This document shows, one piece after another, positions 14,806 through 60,810 of a stretch of 64,000 nucleotides of DNA. Source of the DNA: Anolis carolinensis (Eukaryota); NCBI RefSeq assembly GCF_035594765.1, contig NC_085844.1, forward strand, positions 188,248,107-188,312,106, in the 5' to 3' direction. Position numbers and translations under genes: made by a program. The notes below the pieces were generated by a model that worked only from the letters and a program-made list of their open reading frames with translations, searched no databases and was not told the origin of the DNA. Positions within the stretch are counted from its first letter, which is position 1; each line of letters starts with the position of its first letter.

Positions 14806-14975
14806 GCTTAGAGGATTCTTGCAACTGACATCCAAAGAAGTAAATTTTCCAAACTCTGTTCTGATAGATAAGGGATAATTTACAGCTTTCAAACCTATGC
14901 TCCCTTCTTCTACATTATGTCCATAAACAAATGTCTTTTAGTTTGCTCATCATGTTTTATTCCTTGTCTACTTAC

Positions 14976-15258
14976 CTCCACCATTTTTTTGACACAAATA
15001 TGGAAACCGCCATACATTCCCCAGTCCCACTGAGTAGCCAATCTGAGCCAAAATGTACTGAAGCTTGTTGTTCCATGCTGGCCTGTCCTCAACAGGCTCC
15101 TCCACATCTGGCTGCTGTTTGCTCCAGTTTTCTCCAGCCACATTTAGGACACTGTGCCTATAGTCCACAGGTTCCTCAAGGGCCAGTAGATCAGCCACTG
15201 ATTCTGTGACAGGTTCATTGCTTTGTTCCCGCTGGGTCACTTTGCTGCTCTTAGGCAT
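14976..15258 (-). CDS. SLC6A17: SLC6A17 first coding exon (sodium-dependent neutral amino acid transporter NTT4/XT1), 283 coding bp; exon probably begins at acceptor 15384
   Basis: [33 protein letters not shown]...[36 protein letters not shown]; the [19 protein letters not shown]-terminus fits SLC6A17 rather than SLC6A15; donor G|gtaag; acceptor ttctgtttgctttcttgttccacag| at 15385. Confidence 0.96.
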
Positions 15259-16031
15259 TGGGACTGTCTAGCTCAACCTCTCCAATTATATGATGAAAGT
15301 GGTAGAAGCAAGATGGAGGCAGTATATTTCAAAACAGGTGCTGGATTTTGAGAATGGACTTCAGAAGTTGGTCATCTGTGAGACCTGTGGAACAAGAAAG
15401 CAAACAGAATAAAAATGTAAAAATACATGAGATTTCTCTACTTTCTTCTCTGCTGAAATACACATGTCCGTGCATTTCACTGTCTACAACAAACACACAT
15501 AATGAAGAATGGTTATTAGTTAAACATTTCAAATCCTTGCAGACCTCAGCATTTACTGGTCAAGTTGACTGAAAGATTCGAGGCTTTGCTAATAAAGTTC
15601 AATCACTTAGAGATTCACTATCCAGTGCCTTTAATCCTCTCCTTTTCTTATTGTTTTGAATCTATGGAAGCTTAGGGATTGGCATTCACTTACTATAATA
15701 ACTTGCTTCACATTTATTGCATGCCAAAAATGTGTCAGAAGCTATTTAGCTTAAAATATGGTGGCATTAAAAAGGCATATGCTTTGGCAGTTTTTCTAAG
15801 GGAACAGCAAATATCAAGCTTATCTCTTCATTGCTGACATTATATAAGTAACTGGGATGGCCAGCAATCTTCTGTTAAATTGTCTGTGACAGTTTTACAA
15901 AAGATAGTATCTGTAGAACATTTGGCATTGCTTGTGAGGCCATCGATTACTATGCCTCTTCTTCATTCATAAACTGCAGTCTCTCAATAGAGGTCCTTAG
16001 CTCATATAGTCTGGCACTATCCCACTAACAT

Positions 16032-19206: not shown

Positions 19207-19517
19207 CACTATGTAACACAATTTTTGTTCCTGAATTATACGTGTCCTTTCCTAATTGGTTCTATAATAAAGACATGGAAAAAAATTATTAAACTGCAAA
19301 AACTTTGTTTTTGTAGGTCATCCTACAGCACATTTTGCTATAGTTTTTCAATGAATATCTTAGAGTCTCAACCAATTCAACATAATGTGTGGCAGCCATG
19401 AAAACAAAGTTTCTGGATTATAACAACTGTTTTTAAAATAAGTACTGCACAGTTAAACAAGAAATAATATTTTCAAACCAAGACCAGATTTTTTGCCCCA
19501 AATTTTGTTACATGGTG
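19207..19517. mobile_element. Tc1/mariner-like MITE
   Basis: TIR cactatgtaaca / tgttacatggtg with TA on the left. Confidence 0.6.
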
Positions 19518-22427: not shown

Positions 22428-22584
22428 NNNNNNNNNNNNNNNNNNNNNNNNNNNNNNNNNNNNNNNNNNNNNNNNNNNNNNNNNNNNNNNNNNNNNNNNN
22501 NNNNNNNNNNNNNNNNNNNNNNNNNNNNNNNNNNNNNNNNNNNNNNNNNNNNNNNNNNNNNNNNNNNNNNNNNNNNNNNNNNNN
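22428..22584. other. Assembly gap (157 N)
   Basis: Run of N bases. Confidence 1.
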
Positions 22585-23252: not shown

Positions 23253-24024
23253 TGAGGGTTGAATGAAAAGTAATGCCTCCACCTTCGTAACTCCCCAACA
23301 GATGGCAGTACTGGTATGCGGCAGGTACTGGCTTGTTCAGTAGACTCTCCAGTACAGTTCCATTTGGTGGGAAGCCTTAGCATTGAACGGTTGTGTTATT
23401 AAAGTGCAAAGTATGGAACCCTGTGCAGACGGTCAGTCAATGCGATGTAAGCAACGTGTAGTCTTTGAATTCTTGACAGAAGAAGGTGTCACCCCAAAGG
23501 AGATTCATCAGAGAATGCAAGCTGTTTATGGTGATAGTGTGAGTACTGTGTGTTGTTGGGTGAGTAAGATTAAAGATGTTGAAGTGGGAACATCTGACTT
23601 GCGTGACAAACAAAGAGTTGGACGTCCTGTGACAGCAACCACAGTGTTTCACAAGCAAAAGGTTGACAGATTGATTCAGGACGATTGTCATATCACTCAG
23701 AGAGAAATTTCAAGCATAATCGGCATTTCACAAGAACGTGTGGGTCACATTATTGCTTTGCTTGGCTATCGGAAGATCTGTGCACGATGGGTACTGTGAA
23801 AGGCTGGTTGCAGAAACAGAGTATCAACTTCTTCCGTGATGGCTTCAGAAAACTTGTTCATCATTGGCAGAAATGTATCCAATTGGCTGGTGATTATGTG
23901 GAAAAGTGAATAGTGATAGTTAAAGAACACATTCCAAGGATTATTTTGGCATTTGATTTATTAAAATATTCCCATCCAAACCCAAGTAACGAAGGTGGAG
24001 ACATTATTTTTCATTCAATCCTTG
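23253..24024 (+). mobile_element. Internally deleted mariner transposon
   Basis: ~38-bp TIRs (gagggttgaatgaaaagtaatgcctccaccttcg), TA TSD; N-terminal HTH ORF ending KICARWV joined out of frame to C-terminal WQKCIQLAGDYVEK*. Confidence 0.92.
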
Positions 24025-31882: not shown

Positions 31883-32299
31883 TGTTGTCAAAGGCTTTCA
31901 TGGCCAGAATCACTGGGTTGCTGGGAGTTTTCTGGGCTGTATGGCTATGTTCCAGAAGCATTCTTTCCTGACATTTTACCCATATCTATGGCAGGTATCC
32001 TCAGAGGTTGTGAGGTCTGTTGGAAACTAGGCAAGTGGGGTGTTATAGATCTGTGGAACGTCCAGGTGAGGGAAGGAACTCTCTCTGTTGGAGACAAGTG
32101 TGAAAATTGCAACTGGCCAGCTTTCAGCTTCAAAGCCTGGCTGCCTTCAGCCTGGGGGAATCTTTTATATAAAAGCCCACTTGCCTAGTTTCCAACAGAC
32201 CTCACAACCTCTGAGGATGCCTGCCATAGATGCAGGCGAAACGTCAGGAGAAAATGCTTCTGGAACATGGCCACACAGCCTGGAAAACTCACAGCAACT
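31883..32299. mobile_element. Penelope-like element, inverted pair of terminal fragments
   Basis: Same family as the 11.9 kb copy; 12-bp flanking duplication CAAAAACCAAAT (31871-31882, 32300-32311). Confidence 0.8.
32208..32248 (+). ncRNA. Minimal type I hammerhead ribozyme motif (Penelope-associated), intact core
   Basis: CCT-CTGAGGA-T-GCCTGC-catagat-GCAGGC-GAAA-CG-TC-AGG: conserved CUGAnGA and GAAA boxes, 6-bp stem II, GUC cleavage triplet ending 32245. Confidence 0.75.
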
Positions 32300-32311
32300 C
32301 AAAAACCAAAT

Positions 32312-33800
32312 CGCGGAAACCCCAGCGCGCAGCTCATCCCTGCCCACCTCGGTGCACCCGAACGAGGGCTCTGCGGTGCGGGCCTGCCAAAGGAGCGGGG
32401 AATCGGGCTCCACGCGTCCATTATTCATGAGGGCGGCGCGGCGGCTGCTGCTTCTCCTCTCAATGTTACCATCAAGGTCAGGCTCCAGGAGGCATCGATG
32501 GCGGGAGGAGGGCCTGGGACCTTGCTTTCCTGGTGAGGCGGCAAAGGCGGGCTTCTCCCCCCTTTCAGAGGCAAGCCACTCATCCTTACCTATCCTTCCT
32601 GCCTGCCTGCCTGCCTCCAAGGGCCCGGGCCCTTCAATTCCGCCCCAAGGGCCAGTTATTTGTAGGCTGCAGGTGAGGCTCGCCGTCCCCTCGGCTCGCC
32701 CATGTCTCCTTCTCCCCCGAGCCCCGTGTCTGTTCCCGCCTGGCAACGGAAGCTTCTCTCCGCGGAGGAGGCGGCCTGACCTGTTTCGAGGGAAACGGAG
32801 GGAAGGCCAGATGGGGCAGGAGAGCGCCGTCGGGCCGGAGGGGGCGGAAGGGGCCTCCGTACCGTGGCATGAATGCCGTGTGCCCCCCCCCCCCCTCCTT
32901 TCACTGCCAGGGCCCGGGGTCAATGCTGGGGAAGGTGGGATTTGCAGTTTGCCAAAGGCGGCTTAAGAGCTCCTAGGACTCCATGGCCTTGAGCCAGGGC
33001 AGTTGAAATGCTGCCAAAAGTATGTTCCGTTCATAAGGTATAGATGCGCCCTGAGAGGCTTACCTGCGCGGTGGCTTCAGCGGGACGACGCCGGTAGGGC
33101 TCCTGCAGCTGCGGAAGGCGAAGGCAACCTGGCCCGGGGCGCCTCTTCCTCTTTCCCGGGTGCCTTTTCCCTCCGCCGCTCCCGCTCCTCCGCGCTTGCC
33201 TTCAGGTGCCGGCCCTGGTGCCTTTTGCTGGCTCGAGCAGGAGCTGAACGCGCGCGCGCGCGCCCGCCCAACTTTGCACCGGTGGCTCGTGCCGGTGGCG
33301 CGCGCCGGTGCTGCCGTGTGCTGATTGCTGCTGCTGCTGCTAATGCCCAAAGCGCGGGCGCGTGAAGGAAGGGAGGGAGAGCGCGAGCGCACCTGGGAGC
33401 GTCGTCTCTGTGTGTGTGTGTGTCTGTCTGTCTTCCCTCCTTTCCCACCCCTTCCTGAGGGAAAGGCGAGCGCGTCTTTTTTGGCTGGGCGCGCGTGACG
33501 TGGGCTTGAGTCACTCGCCCAAGGATGCGCGTCAGTGACGGGAGAGGAGGGGGCAAAGCGCGGGGCTTGAGGGGTTGGCTGCACCAAGCCCTGGGGTCCC
33601 TGGGGAGGGCTGAGCCTCGCTGCCTGCCTGCCTGGACGACTGGGGCCAAGGCCGACCGCGCCACCTGATGCTGCGTGGGCCAAAGACCAGCCTGGCTCAC
33701 TGCGGGGAAAGTGAGCCCCTGAGCAAGGCGGCTGCGAGCGGAAGCGCACGGAGGCCCTTGGCTTTGGCCTCCGCGAAGAGCAGGACGCCTCCTTCCAAGA
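32312..33800. promoter_or_regulatory. SLC6A17: CpG island / SLC6A17 promoter region
   Basis: Very GC- and CpG-rich stretch in an AT-rich background; TGACGTGG (33496), AP-1 TGAGTCA (33507), paired CRE half-sites CGTCAGTGACG (33530-33540). Confidence 0.85.
33064..33400 (-). other. SLC6A17: Putative non-coding exon 1 (5' UTR) of SLC6A17; 5' boundary approximate
   Basis: Consensus donor CAG|GTAAGC at 33064/33063 inside the CpG island; no minus-strand ATG in the segment; ~17.7 kb upstream of exon 2. Confidence 0.7.
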
Positions 33801-52420: not shown

Positions 52421-54489
52421 GAAATGTCCTAAAACACTTCACCAAAGCTTCTTTTCTCATCTCTTGAACAGTGCCAGCAGTGAAGGGTGCTAAAGACCTA
52501 TGCTTCATACATTAAAATGCCTCTTCCTTGTTCTGTGTCAGCTTGACCTTGCTAAAGAAAAAGGAAAGAAAATAGTTTGTGGGTTAGGTTAGTACAAATT
52601 GAGTATTCCTTATCTACAGTGTCTGAGACCAGAAGTACTTTGGATTTCAGATTCCCCCCCCCCCCATTTTAGAATATTTGTATGTACACAAGGAGTTATG
52701 TTGGATATGGGAACCAAATCTAAGCACAATATTCATGTATGGTTCATGTACATTTTATGCACATAGCAATATTTTTAATAATTCTGTGCATTAAACAAAG
52801 TGTTTATACATTGAACCATCAGAAAGCAGAGGTGTCACTATCTCAGCAACCCATGTAGATGATTTTAGACTTGAAGAATTTCAGATTTTAGATAATGGAT
52901 ACTCAACCTATATCATCACTATTAAGAACTCCAGTGGGATCCACAATTCCTTCGGGTGAGAGAGGTGTGGGAATAGAGATGAACAGCTGGTCAGGGGTTG
53001 ATGCAGGGGACTAGAGACATATAACAAAGATCCACATTGCACCTTCTAATAAGCACTGTATACTGTATAAGAAGGCAATATTTGTGTGTATTTAATGCCT
53101 ACTGAAACACAATCAAACTTCCTTTCTAGGCCATCAGTCATCAGTAGACGTACAGACCTCTAGAGCTTTCTACAACTCTGTGTCTCTATCTCAGCCAGAC
53201 TCCCAGAATGAAATATTCTTATTTTTTGGACTCCAACTCCTGGGGTATATCCCCTAGGTACAATAAAAGCAGTCAATGTCATCATTTTAATTGCATTGAT
53301 TCTCTCTGATGGAATTTTGAGACTTGCAATTTCACAAGGTGCTCAGAATTCTTGAGTACAATCCCCTTGAACTACAACACAAGATCTCTTTCTGAGGAAA
53401 TTATAAGCCCTTCATAGAAATGCAGAACAAACAATTCTATAAGATGGAGACTAGTAATTAAAATGGTATCAAAGCCAGCATGATGTTGGGTGTTGTGAAA
53501 GGAGTCAAGGATACTAGGGTTCAAATTTTCACTTGGAAACAGACTCGATGATTGTGAGCAAGTCACATACTCTCAACTTCAGGTGAAGGCAATAGTAAAC
53601 TGGTTCTGAACAAATCTTGCCAAGAAAACTTCTTAGAGTCTCCAGGAATCAGAAATGACTTGGAGGAACACCACAACATCAACACAAGGACAATAATTAT
53701 TGTTTGGACATGCCTTAACATTTTTAGCCAACATGGTAAGTAGCTGGGGATACTTGGAGTTATAGTCCAAAAGGTTACTTTTCCAGGCTCTGCTTTGAGT
53801 TCTCAATTATCCCATTCTCATTTTGCTTTCCCCCATGACTCCTTTGCTTCCTCTGTCCTGCTTTGCACCCAATGCATACTAATACGAAGGAAAGGGCAAG
53901 CCAGGCAAGTGATGGAGTTGTCAGTGGCTACTGCTGCTATTCTTTTTTCTTGTGGTTACCATTAGTTGGTTCAATGTTTAAAGAGTCTTAGGGTACATGG
54001 GGAGCCAAAGGAAGGAGAAAAAGATGAGGGATGTGGCAGCTAGAGGTTCCAGAAGTGCAGATCAGCATTAGGCCTATAGGAGTGTGGGCATAGATAAGCC
54101 TTTGGAAATGCCAGCCCTGAGCCCATCCTCAGTTAAATACACTTAAAACTGCAGGCGGGCACATATTTTTAGGAAAGATCATGACACATTTCTCTGTTCC
54201 TGTATTTTTGTTCATTCGCTCATCCTTCTTGTAGTTATTTGTCCCAGCTTGCTACCTGGTTTTATGAGTCAGTCTTCAATTTGAGACAGCAGCACTGAGG
54301 AGTTTCCAAAACATAGGAATTGCACATTAGTTCCTTCCCTTCAGGTGTGTTCTGTGAAAGAAACTGTGTAGAACAGTTAGAAATCCTGATTAAGATGTCA
54401 AGGCACCAATGATCTGGAAAACAAATAAAAACTTTATTACAGGAATTCCCTTCTCGATTGGAAAATTACTCAGGCACTAATCTAAACAG

Positions 54490-54887
54490 AGGCCCCTCTG
54501 ACCTCGAAGGGACCCCCAGCAGCCCAGCCGGACCCCCGTTTCCTGACAGACACCCCTCAGGCGGTGACAGGGCTACAGCAAGAGGAGACCCCCAGCACAC
54601 TGATGCCCTCGGAGCCCCCCTTCACCCCGGGGGCTGCAGTGGGCCGGCCAGGGAGACCCCCAACGCCCCAGCAAGGGGCTGCTCCCAGCCAGCCGGCCCC
54701 CCGGGGGTCCTCCTCTCCGTCCCACACCACCCTCGCCATCGTCAGCCTCCTGGGAATCGCGCTCGTCTTGGTGGCCGTCGTGGTTTCCTTGGTTTGCCGG
54801 AGGAGGAGGAGGCGTCAGGAGGGGCCACTCCACCCTGCTGCCCTCGGTGAGGAGACCCATTGGCTGAACCTTCCCGAGAAGACCTGA
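54490..54887 (+). pseudogene. Orphan coding-like segment: Pro/Thr/Ser-rich stalk + transmembrane helix + basic stop-transfer + short tail (CXCL16-like C-terminus); terminal exon or duplicated gene fragment
   Basis: Open frame from 54486 to TGA at 54887: ...SSSPSHTTLAIVSLLGIALVLVAVVVSLVCRRRRRRQEGPLHPAALGEETHWLNLPEKT*; in-frame stop at 54483; possible phase-1 acceptor ctaatctaaacag|; followed by UTR-like sequence. Confidence 0.55.
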
Positions 54888-55362: not shown

Positions 55363-57038
55363 GCTTCATTGTAGCAAAGTGCTGAGAGAGAACTGATGGG
55401 TAGAGAAGAAATCGGGAAATATCCAGTTTACATCATCTTAGGTAGACTCACACTGGAGCTTTCACGTGGGCAGCCCCGTTCTTCTGGTACGAGCAGAATT
55501 CTGGGAAATGTAGTTTAGGCCTTTTGAAAACTCTGCTACAGAGGTCCTTGCCTTCCCAAACTACATTTCTCTGAAATCGGCTCACACCGGAAGAACAGGA
55601 TTGCCTGCATTACAGCCCCAATGTGATATGGCTGATAGAGGGAGGACACTTTGAGTCACTGCATCTTTGTTATTTATACCAGCTCTGAGGCATTTTTGAC
55701 TCTTCAATGCTAAGTGTTGTTTGCACTTCCAACATTCTGTAAAGCACCGAAAGAAGGCTAAGCATATGTGGGATCAAGTACACAAAAAGCCTACAACGGG
55801 TAAAACTCATCAGCAGGATTAAGTACATCTATTTGCACCTTACCTAGCGGTTAGCATCCACCCAGTTAAATTGCTGTTTTCCATCTCTCCCCCAACAATT
55901 TTAGCCTAATTTTAGAGATTTTAAATGATATTTTAAAGATTTAATAATAATCATGTGGATTATTTTATGTCTTGTTTATTTATGTCAGTTTATAATTTAC
56001 TGAGTTGTTCTTGATTCATTTCTTGATTTGTTTACATGTTACTATCGGCACTGAATATTTGGGGAGATAGGGTGGGTTATAAATAAGGTTTCAAACCTAT
56101 TCCAAGGAGAGATTGGTGTATTTGTTTGGTACTTCTGTTTTTGTACCACCAGCCCTGCCCCATGCTGACACATTTTCAATTATAACTTTAATATTTTGGG
56201 GGGGGGGCACACAAATCGGTCCTTCTAGGACATGAGTGGAGGCATAGCAGAATCAGCTTATCATTGTACTAGAACAGATAGCCAAGTCCAGTGAAAAGCA
56301 ATCTGAGTACCTGCGAGCAGTAATGATGCTTTCCACATGCCCAGATACGACTGAAATAGAAGTACCAGCCCACCTGACCAATGACTTTTTAGTTGTAAAA
56401 GAAAAGGGTCTAGAATTTGTCACTGTTCTCAAAGTTGCTATGATGAGTAATCTAGACATAAGCGTGAAAATCACCTCAGTCCGTTTCTAAGCAACTCTTT
56501 GAAGAGGTGCCAAAGAGCTACACCAAAGCACACAAGCCATTTTGTTGCTATTTATTTTGCAGGATTGAGGAGTTCTTGCTAATTTTGGGCATCCTGGGCC
56601 AGCCATGTCTTGAACTGTGGAACACACAGCTGAATGTATTGTTCAATTATGATAGCATAGCATCCTTGTGGGAAGGCTGCTGAAAACATCACTGACTCAT
56701 ACATACAGCTTTATTTGGGGAAAACAAGGGTGAGAAACATGCACCCTGCCAAATGTTGCTGGATTGTTACTACTGGAATTCCTCGCTACTGATTTATGGG
56801 CGGCTGGGACTTACAGTCCAGAGCTATTTGGAATGTTCCATGGCTTTCACTTTTGAAGCAGACCCTAATAGCCATTGACAAGCCTTGCTGTAATGCTTAT
56901 GAATTCACAACAAATAGGTACCCGTCACAATCAGTTTTAAAAATAAAAGATTTACTGCCATTTTTGTGAATAGTGTTAGCTGAGCCTTAATACTTTTCTT
57001 CATTATACAGTACAGTATTATCATTTTAGTCATGGTGT

Positions 57039-57937: not shown

Positions 57938-58692
57938 CAAACATGCTCTTTATATTTGTGACTTTATATAGAAAACCTGTGTAGTATATAAACATTGGTT
58001 TCTAAGCTTGCATTATATGCTAGCTATGCATGCTGCAGTATTGGAGGTGGGGGTTGGGGTTCACTGAATCCATTTTGGTGACTCTTGCTCTCATCACCAA
58101 CCTTTTTGATGCATTTTGGATCATTAAACAATAGGCTTGATCGATCCATGAAAAATTTGATTCTAAACTCGTTTCAAAACTAGAGGGGGGCAGCGTTTCG
58201 TTTCTGAAGGTATTTCCGAATTTTGCCCCCCAAAAAATTCGAAATTAACGAAAATTCGTTATTTTCAAAATTAATTCGTTAATGGCAGACGCGCATGCGC
58301 AATTCCCAAAAACAGCACAGAGGGAGAGGACTTTACAGGACTCTCCCACCCTCATTTTTTGAGTGATCTTCTTCAAACTTGGTACAGTGGTAGAACACAT
58401 TTAGTACTGATAGCTCACCAAAATTTGGAACGTTTCCCTTATCCTCTGATTTTTGGAGAATTTTCATAGCTTTTATAATAAACCATTTTTTAATAATTGC
58501 AGAAATCTGTTCCTGGTTTGAAAGTCTTATTTCCTGTTAAATTGGGTTGTCTTTACTGTGAAAGTCATTGTTCTACTTCAGAAACTTTGTTTTTGTGGCT
58601 GAAACTTTGTTAAATTGGTGTGTGTGTGATATATACTGTGTATATATATATATATAGTCCCTGCATATGTGTGTGTGTGTGTGTGTGTGTAT

Positions 58693-58852
58693 AGGTAAAG
58701 GTAAAGGTATCCCTTGACATTAAGTTCAGTCATGTCTGACTCTGGGGGTTGGTGCTCATCTCCATTTCTAAGCCCAAGAGCCAGTGTTGTCCATAGACAC
58801 CTCCAAGGTCATGTGGCCGGCATGACTACATGGAGTGCCATTACCTTCCCAG
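58693..58852 (-). mobile_element. Sauria SINE 3' fragment inside the hAT element
   Basis: ggtaaaggtaaagg tail then SINE body truncated at ttaccttccc. Confidence 0.85.
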
Positions 58853-59216
58853 AAACACCCAGAAAATGGGAATTCCAGACAGGAAACAATCAGGGCCAGC
58901 TAATACCTCCCAACAAAGGATTCCCCCAGGTAGGAAGCAGCCAGGCTTTGAAGCTGCAAGGCTATTCAATGCTAATCAAGGTGACTAATTGCAGCATTCA
59001 CACTTGCCTCCCACAGACAAGAGTTCTTTCTCCCACCCTGGACCTTCCACAGATATATAAACCCCACTTGCCTAGCTTCGCACAGACGTCAAAACCTCTA
59101 TGTCTGCCACAGATGTGGGTGAAACGTCAGGAGAGAATGCTTCTGGCACATGGCCATAGAGCCCGGAATACATACCACAACAGTGTGATCCCGGCCATGA
59201 AAGCTTTCGACAACAC
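58853..59216 (+). mobile_element. Penelope-like element terminal fragment inside the hAT element; hammerhead core disrupted
   Basis: Homologous to the 11.9 and 31.9 kb copies (gccatgaaagctttcgacaac end); CTGAGGA core partly deleted. Confidence 0.75.
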
Positions 59217-60810
59217 AACCACAGTATCCATTCAAGTTCATGTAGCGTGGTATGGAGAGACCTGTATTGGGGGGAGGGAGGGTGAGAATCTGGGCCCCTG
59301 GGAGTCGTAGTCCTCCCTCCCTCCCTCCCCGGGAGCAGCCGAGGACGGGCCTGGCCCACACCCCCTCGCATCCCGGGCCTCTTCCTCCTCACCGCCGGGC
59401 CCCTCTCTGTTTCTCTCGGTCTCTCCAGGCCTGAGCTGAGGCGAGGCGGCGGCGGCGGCGGCCATTTCCCCCCTCCGTCTTCCTCCTCCTCCTCGGCCTC
59501 CTTCCCCCTCGCCCCCTCCCATTGGCTGAGCCCGTGACGCCCCTTTTGCTGAGGGGCAAAAGGAAAGGGCCTGAATGGTGGGAGTTTGGGTGATTTGCAA
59601 AAGCTTTTTTTCCTAACGAAAAAAACGAAGAAATAAGAAAAAACGGCCTCTTGCGATTCGAAACCGCGATATCCAGACGTGTGGACAATCAAGGCCGTAT
59701 ATTGCTTCAAAACAAACGAAAATAACGAATTAATAACGGGTAACGGGGAAATCGAATTATTTGAGCAAGCCTATTAAACAATACCAGCTTCCAATTCTGG
59801 TCACATCTCCATTTCTCTGGCTTTGTGTTTACAAACAGAATTACTGCTGTGTACTAATTAAATACTTCGTGACTACCAATTTAATTTTATTCATAGGGAT
59901 TATTCCAGCTCTGTTTGGAGGGGAAGGGTAGAGAGTAAAGTGCCATTATAAATGTCTGGGCTCTGTTATTAGAGCAGGGCTAGATGCTGAGCTGCATGTT
60001 TTTGATACCACTTGGAAGTGCATTGGAAAAGGGTTTTGCACAAACAAGGAGTCCAGGACGACCTCCTTTAAAAAAAACATTTTCCTACATGATGGTTAAT
60101 TTCCATATAGAAAAAGATATAAGTTTGGTTATTCATATTGCTGATGGCTCCATAGGCAGGAAAATTCTCACTATACCCTTCTGAGTAATTTCTTGAAAAA
60201 TTAACTAAAACAGTTTGAAACAATAACTCAGAATAAAGCCATTACCATAAAAGTCAGCATTTTTTAAATTTAAAAATCTTGTAAAGCAGGCAATTTTTTT
60301 TAAAAAAAACTTTACAAGGTAGGCAGTTTATAACCCTACAGAAGTTATTGTACTGCAACTCATAAAATTCATCTCCCATTAGCTCCTGTTGTTTAAGGAT
60401 GGTAGGAATTTCATTCATATAGTATCTGAAAAGGGAACATTTGCTGTGTACTCTTACCTTTGAACTACAGGCAGATTCCTTTCCCCCCCATATTTACTAT
60501 CAGAGGGATTAAGGCTCCATTTACACTGTCATATAATGCAGCTTGAAACTGCATTATATGAGTTACACTAACCATTATATGATTAGTGTTGACTGATATA
60601 ATGCAGTTTTAACTGCATTATATGAGTCTACACTGACCATATAATGCAATTTCAAACTGCACTACGATGACAATGTAGATGGGGAGTTATGGAAACCTGA
60701 GAGAATTAAGGTCTCTGAAGTAATACACTATGTCATAGACTCCACAGCACCTTTAGACATCACCATACCCAAATTATAATGGCTATGTAATATAACAAAT
60801 TGTATGACTA

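Follow-up and report, generated by a model that had tools for sequence, protein, structure and literature searches.

A GC-rich, promoter-like block lies near the right end of a hobo-type transposon in the window (the whole 64,000-nt stretch of Anolis carolinensis DNA analyzed here), and we estimate a probability of about 0.5 that it represents the inward-facing promoter and first exon of the hobo family itself, kept after an internal deletion of the element. This reading is favored by the arrangement of the element, in which an inward-facing CCAAT box, ATG and splice donor are located near the right end and the left arm is nearly bare. It is at least as likely as an origin from a housekeeping gene of the host, because the block is found family-wide and is placed where the promoters of DNA transposons sit. 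The TIRs, the TSD and the cargo of the element match hobo_AC, and the block is present in high copy number. At the window site the promoter-like block most likely drives nothing useful.

The element that carries the block

The host of the block is a non-autonomous hAT element of 1,642 bp, which extends from 58132 to 59773 (Table 1). Both of its TIRs, TAGGCTTGATC and TAGGCTTGCTC, agree with the type TAGGCTTGMTC of hobo_AC group A, while the spelling TAGGCTTSATC, given for this group in Table 1 of the paper that described hobo_AC in 2010 (Novick et al., PMC3014272), is fitted by the left TIR only; the TSD TTAAACAA has the pattern NTRNNYAN on both sides. The AACGAA/TTCGTT array of the left subterminal region would likely be a transposase-binding array. 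The CpGs of both subterminal regions are intact, as a young insertion would show, and hobo_AC is thought to be a recent arrival in anoles (PMC3014272).

No Pfam match was obtained for the three internal ORFs of the element, and transposase is absent. A Chapaev-like filler begins in the left arm at about 58450-58503. The truncated SINE piece is presumably a Sauria/ACA SINE, and we take the repeat that adjoins it to be Penelope-like. These labels are also suggested by the published description, in which group A elements contain an ACA SINE and a Penelope piece, while the autonomous copies of 9-15 kb contain Chapaev fragments and other captured DNA (PMC3014272). The two dispersed repeats found here, of fitting size and accompanied by no transposase, correspond to this cargo. 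According to the same source, the non-autonomous families number 15 and measure 1.3-3.4 kb, hobo_AC has often captured genomic DNA, and the central filler is specific to each family. The present element shares with hobo-N1 to N6_AC (group A) the TIR, the TSD pattern, the lack of transposase, the Penelope-like and Chapaev-like cargo, and a size within the 1.3-3.4 kb range. Its SINE piece is 160 bp long, as compared to 157 bp (333 minus 176) in N1, N4 and N6, and its length of 1,642 bp differs from the listed hobo_AC consensus lengths, the nearest of which is that of N1, 1,854 bp (PMC3014272). Judged by its ends and cargo, the element is most likely a group A-like hobo_AC of A. carolinensis, with a length that fits no published consensus.

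Other repeats were observed in the window. The 311-bp MITE at 19207-19517 has terminal repeats that resemble Chapaev3-1N2_AC (PMC3014272 Table 2). Nested inverted repeats at 60529-60664, MITE- or satellite-like, with arms of 27-36 nt that are 89% complementary, are located 750 bp to the right of the element.

Table 1. Positions of the features in the window (strand "." where no orientation applies)
Feature	Position	Strand	Remarks
First coding exon of SLC6-family gene	14968..15384	-	14968-15267 matches PF00209, E 1.3e-17
CpG island, putative non-coding exon 1 and strong donor (33063) of SLC6-family gene	32200..33800	-	
Left TSD TTAAACAA	58124..58131	.	Fits NTRNNYAN (PMC3014272 Table 1)
Left TIR TAGGCTTGATC, 11 bp	58132..58142	+	Matches hobo_AC TAGGCTTGMTC
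Left subterminal region, AACGAA/TTCGTT repeats	58143..58310	+	CpG intact (o/e 1.86)
NRF1-type palindrome GCGCATGCGC	58291..58300	.	Inner edge of left subterminal region
Chapaev3-like filler fragment	58503..58619	+	89/121 columns identical to MITE at 19207-19517
Truncated SINE piece, 160 bp	58692..58851	+	Similar copies at 5 other places in window
Penelope-like repeat piece	58852..59217	+	Left border approximate
GC-rich promoter-like block	59265..59585	-	Faces into element; 190-510 bp inside right end
Weak candidate splice donor GCG/GTGAGG	59387..59395	-	Putative
Polypyrimidine tract and AG, candidate acceptor	59406..59428	+	
YY1-like site over ATG (59465), start of 75-codon low-complexity ORF	59457..59467	-	
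NF-Y-type CCAAT box and CRE half-site	59519..59539	-	
Right subterminal region, AACGAA/TTCGTT repeats	59586..59762	-	CpG intact (o/e 2.05)
Right TIR, inward reading TAGGCTTGCTC, 11 bp	59763..59773	-	
Right TSD TTAAACAA	59774..59781	.	Perfect 8-bp copy of left one

Motifs and composition of the block

The earlier note had read the block as a housekeeping-type promoter and first exon on the minus strand, and the motifs it named were all located, none more than a base or two from the place given. The CCAAT box is present at 59525-59521, within AGCCAATGG. The CRE half-site GTGACG lies at 59534-59539, where it reads, as written, on the plus strand rather than the minus strand. The YY1-like motif AAATGGCCGCC at 59467-59457 overlaps the ATG and reads as claimed, the GT of the candidate donor is at 59392, and the ZNF143/SBS-like motif is GGACTACGACTCCCAG at 59313-59298, all on the minus strand. 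The acceptor proposed for the plus strand near 59429 has its AG ending at 59428, and with 17 pyrimidines out of 20 it is the best in the element. The palindrome GCGCATGCGC, which the note assigned to NRF1, was also found; it is located 1 kb from the block in the other arm and, taken alone, is not above chance, as it appeared in 1354 of 3000 shuffles. The CCAAT box, the ATG and the donor, all inward-facing, lie 249, 309 and 381 bp from the right end, respectively, while in the left arm the subterminal DNA spans no more than about 180 bp, with one NRF1 palindrome.

The significance of single motifs, which were chosen post hoc, was estimated against 5000 dinucleotide-shuffled versions of the block (321 bp). 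None of them contained the ZNF143-like motif, 53 had the YY1-like motif and 162 the extended NF-Y motif, and the CRE half-site (618), the donor-like 5-mer (957) and bare CCAAT (1348) were commoner by chance. When motif classes were counted per tile with a fixed panel of 12 promoter motifs, the block had three classes (NF-Y, CRE and ZNF143), a number reached in 82 of 3000 shuffles and by 14 of the 591 tiles across the window. The YY1-like site is one base off the panel consensus AANATGGCS. Hence, the motif enrichment of the block is modestly above chance. The tile with the promoter of SLC6A17 itself scored only one panel class, which indicates that the panel is a blunt tool.

The block has a GC content of 69%, as against 38% in the subterminal region. 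CpG islands are defined by a length of at least 200 bp, GC above 50% and CpG o/e of at least 0.6. The CpG o/e is 0.53 for the whole block (59265-59585) and 0.69 for its core (59300-59545), and the CpG-island label is thus borderline, depending on the interval. The candidate donor scored 3.2 bits, as compared to 7.2 bits for the exon-1 donor of SLC6A17, on a rough scoring matrix.

It is very unlikely that the block is GC-rich low-complexity DNA with coincidental motifs and without promoter activity. Such a coincidence would be consistent with the 14 window tiles that also reach three motif classes, with the low CpG o/e of the whole block, the imperfect YY1 site and the weak donor, and with the report that computed CpG islands are a poor guide to unmethylated DNA in lizard (PMC3583005), but it is at odds with the absence of the ZNF143-like motif from the 5000 shuffles, with the promoter-like order of the motifs, and with a variant of the block, described below, that gains two promoter motifs at the expected upstream place. 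An old inverted repeat at 55448-55626, with arms of 72 nt that are 75% complementary, also contains a classic ZNF143-type motif at 55514 (minus strand) together with an E-box; in the anole genome the motif thus occurs outside promoters too.

Protein searches with the 75-aa ORF and a 124-aa frame were blank. For the 75-aa ORF, one protein search gave 704 candidates, none at E ≤0.01, and a further one gave 9 candidates, none at E ≤1, while for residues 1-40 there were 104 candidates, none at E ≤10. The 124-aa frame of the block had no match among 1.84 billion proteins at E ≤0.001. These protein searches are weak evidence against the ORF belonging to a coding first exon already known from a host gene or from a transposase. 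Pattern scans gave no matches in metagenome contigs and none in viral contigs, no second copy was found within the 64-kb window, and all eight Rfam matches were far below the gathering score. Two bacterial pattern matches extend over 21-26 bp only and were rejected as chance.

Occurrence across the family and origin of the block

Of the 24 runs listed, 20, from 8 studies with one organism label, contained half or more of the words sampled from 59218-59773. Assembled contigs were aligned for four runs, X1, which is of DNA type, and X9, X12 and X14, which are RNA by guess only; the comparison omitted as repeat the stretch 59424-59507, which holds the ATG and the plus-strand acceptor. The ratio of contig depth in the block (59280-59423) to that in the end (59568-59747) was 0.68, 0.74, 0.33 and 0.48 in the four runs. 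The summed depth in X1, which is not a copy number, was about 1.0 million for the block, about 1.5 million for the right subterminal region and about 29 for unique flank. The large share of the end depth that the block reaches in four of four runs shows that it travels with a large part of the hobo ends, family-wide. One contig of X14 spans from the Penelope-like piece into the block (59174-59386), in another the right end continues into a different flank, and the flank 59784-59880 of the window copy was almost uncovered in the aligned runs. The depth ratios and the X14 flank point to multiple copies at different insertion sites, as would be seen with a Pack-TIR or captured promoter, and the block is inward-facing, beside the subterminal repeats and family-wide, as would be seen with a promoter of the family itself.

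The family copies differ in their promoter motifs. At 59543 loose ends were found in 14 contigs of X1 and 8 of X9, in which the short inverted repeat that the window copy has at 59544-59563 gives way, upstream of the CRE half-site, to a GC box and another CCAAT box; these ends indicate that the promoter motifs vary among copies, and the variant may be an autonomous or a group B form. Some copies have a 31-bp deletion (59295-59331, between short direct repeats), which removes the ZNF143-like motif. The window copy has a few private sites relative to the family majority, including 59285 and 59652, each of which costs one CpG. A donor-like GT on the plus strand at 59282 depends on the private change at 59285, where more than 99% of the X1 depth has the other base. 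Few of the variants listed affect CpGs, in contigs that lose rare variants. The depth in X12 and X14 has no step at the putative start, in contigs that register neither starts nor levels. Among the eight joints and 24 of the 447 loose ends, none was located at the donor (59392/59393), and the same 24 loose ends contained no parental locus outside the element.

If the block belongs to the family itself, transcription of the full-length hobo_AC would begin near 59500 through factors that bind its NF-Y, CRE and GC-box motifs, and the donor at 59392 would join a short first exon to the transposase exons on the far side of the filler DNA. The location of filler in the first intron would explain why autonomous copies tolerate a length of 9-15 kb. 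The transposase gene was presumably lost by internal deletion, and a copy that retained both ends and subterminal repeats could be mobilized in trans, carrying the promoter along. An inward-facing terminal promoter near the TIR is known from maize Ac. The Drosophila hobo is similar in that the promoter fragment tested was its first 315 bp, with an annotated CAAT box, so that an inward promoter lies within about 300 bp of the TIR (PMC6446368). It differs in having a TATA box and in being inactive in human cells, while the anole block is TATA-less and GC-rich, with motifs of the vertebrate housekeeping type.

Several observations speak against a promoter of the family itself. The donor is weak and coincided with none of the joints and loose ends given above, the searches gave no homologue of the ORF, and the motif enrichment is modest (82/3000). 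The degenerate TIRs of the recombinant hobo-N14/N15 (PMC3014272 Table 1) imply that the GCTC end is labeled 3′ by the authors, and if this label follows the ORF, the block would be antisense to the transposase. In favor of a family promoter, that paper used 300 bp from the 3′ region for its tree of non-autonomous families of both groups; should this region be the end that carries the block, the 300 bp would reach 59473 and cover the CCAAT/CRE part. The frequent capture of genomic DNA reported for hobo_AC would favor a captured promoter over one of the family itself.

It is possible, on the unlikely side, that the block is a CpG-island promoter, exon 1 and donor of the host, captured early by hobo and amplified as cargo in the manner of Pack-TIRs or HelibatN3, and not serving the transposase. 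There are precedents in bats, where Helitron-borne promoters from 15 genes were amplified to 4,690 copies and HelibatN3, which carries six codons and a splice donor of NUBPL along with its promoter, traps exons (PMC4778049, PMC4224331). If captured, the anole block would resemble HelibatN3 as a promoter, short coding start and donor within a high-copy non-autonomous transposon, but HelibatN3 is a rolling-circle and not a cut-and-paste element, and its parent gene and exon trapping are established, while the anole block is known from its sequence. In frog, Pack-hAT-N8_XT, with the CAPSL 5′ UTR, is likewise a hAT with an internal GC-rich, 5′-end-like sequence, and multicopy Pack-TIRs favor GC-rich DNA; Pack-TIRs are, however, defined by their parental copy, and the frog element has three copies, as compared to a large share of thousands here (PMC8277862). 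The screen of that study reported no Pack-TIRs for anoCar2, but it used no hAT or AcHobo consensus for this assembly, and its zero therefore does not touch hobo_AC. The sharp GC step at the block border and the implied 3′ label of this end also fit cargo. On the other hand, no host protein starts with the ORF, which is weak evidence; in a large share of copies the block keeps its position next to the subterminal repeats, whereas the central filler of the published families is family-specific (PMC3014272); and the 59543 variant was present in more contigs (14 and 8) than a single-copy parent gives. The claim of a mobile promoter cassette thus holds as far as a promoter-like, highly multi-copy block enclosed by hAT TIRs and an 8-bp TSD without mismatch is concerned, and the origin from a host housekeeping gene is only a rival explanation, as a promoter of the element itself, the refuting case that the note set out, is at least as likely. 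The two origins can both hold if an ancestral element captured a promoter and then used it.

It is unlikely that another transposable element (of the L1 5′ UTR, LTR or DIRS type) supplied the block, as filler, from its promoter-bearing 5′ end. The remaining cargo of the element is all repeat-derived, L1 5′ ends have a similar purine-rich stretch before a YY1 site, and the ZNF143-type motif recurs in the inverted repeat at 55514. The upstream CCAAT boxes are, however, unlike the internal promoter of L1, the window has no second copy of the block, and the block depth stayed below that of the hobo end in four of four runs, which gives no sign of extra copies outside hobo. Returning to the promoter of the family itself, no description of such a block was found in the open-access literature, and the words promoter, CpG, exon and intron are absent from the main text of PMC3014272; the carrier family has been known since 2010.

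The SLC6A17 neighborhood and the meaning of the block

The SLC6-family gene on the minus strand, which we take to be SLC6A17, has a CpG island with 73 CpG in 801 bp (o/e 0.82). An assembly gap of 157 bases (22428-22584, N run) is located in its first intron, and a Mariner-like transposase N-terminal fragment with weak HTH matches was noticed at 23344-23799 (plus strand). The frame at 54486-54887 (plus strand), between the hobo copy and SLC6A17, encodes a stalk rich in Pro, Ser and Thr, a single transmembrane stretch and a basic stop-transfer segment, is followed by an AU-rich tail to about 55290, and resembles a retrocopy or the final part of a type I membrane protein; it had no Pfam match at the cutoff, and its atlas look-alikes were all below 0.9.

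The earlier note proposed that the cassette points toward SLC6A17, about 26 kb away on the same strand. The strand and the distance are correct (26,329 bp from the block donor to the putative SLC6A17 exon-1 donor), while the link itself is unsupported, as the gene has its own CpG island and strong donor and its next acceptor is about 44 kb from the block donor. It is highly improbable that the window copy is an alternative promoter or enhancer of SLC6A17. Exon 1 of the gene appears non-coding, so that exon 2 might in principle accept splicing from an exon farther upstream, and captured promoters did likewise in bats; the shared strand also fits, though this orientation is a coin toss. Against such a role speak the distances, 26 kb from the native promoter and 44 kb from the acceptor, the intervening 28 minus-strand AATAAA sites and strong-looking acceptors (6 of 290 candidates with at least 17 of 20 pyrimidines before the SLC6A17 promoter), the membrane-protein-like ORF on the plus strand in between, and the absence of joints and loose ends at the donor, as given above. 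Anole hobo insertions are also hardly ever fixed: nearly all of the 45,421 insertion sites are polymorphic, and one anole cluster has 2 fixed and 19,344 polymorphic insertions (PMC7561263 Table 1).

As the promoter of the family itself, the block would be a useful annotation of a very active, known anole family and an ordinary feature of a DNA transposon. Its significance would be greater if it were derived from the host. The inactivity of the fly hobo promoter in human cells (PMC6446368) and the recent arrival of hobo_AC suggest promoter capture as a route by which a hAT may settle in a new host. We hold it for a doubtful, though not far-fetched, proposal that a newly arrived hAT captured a lizard housekeeping promoter, exon 1 and donor, possibly for its own transposase, and that this cassette was then spread over thousands of sites that are still polymorphic in wild anoles. 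If true, it would be a cut-and-paste counterpart of the bat HelibatN3, on a scale beyond the animal Pack-TIR screen, and a captured exon-trap cassette could help to explain the near absence of hobo fixation. As the insertions are polymorphic, their effects on neighboring genes can be compared directly between carriers and non-carriers.
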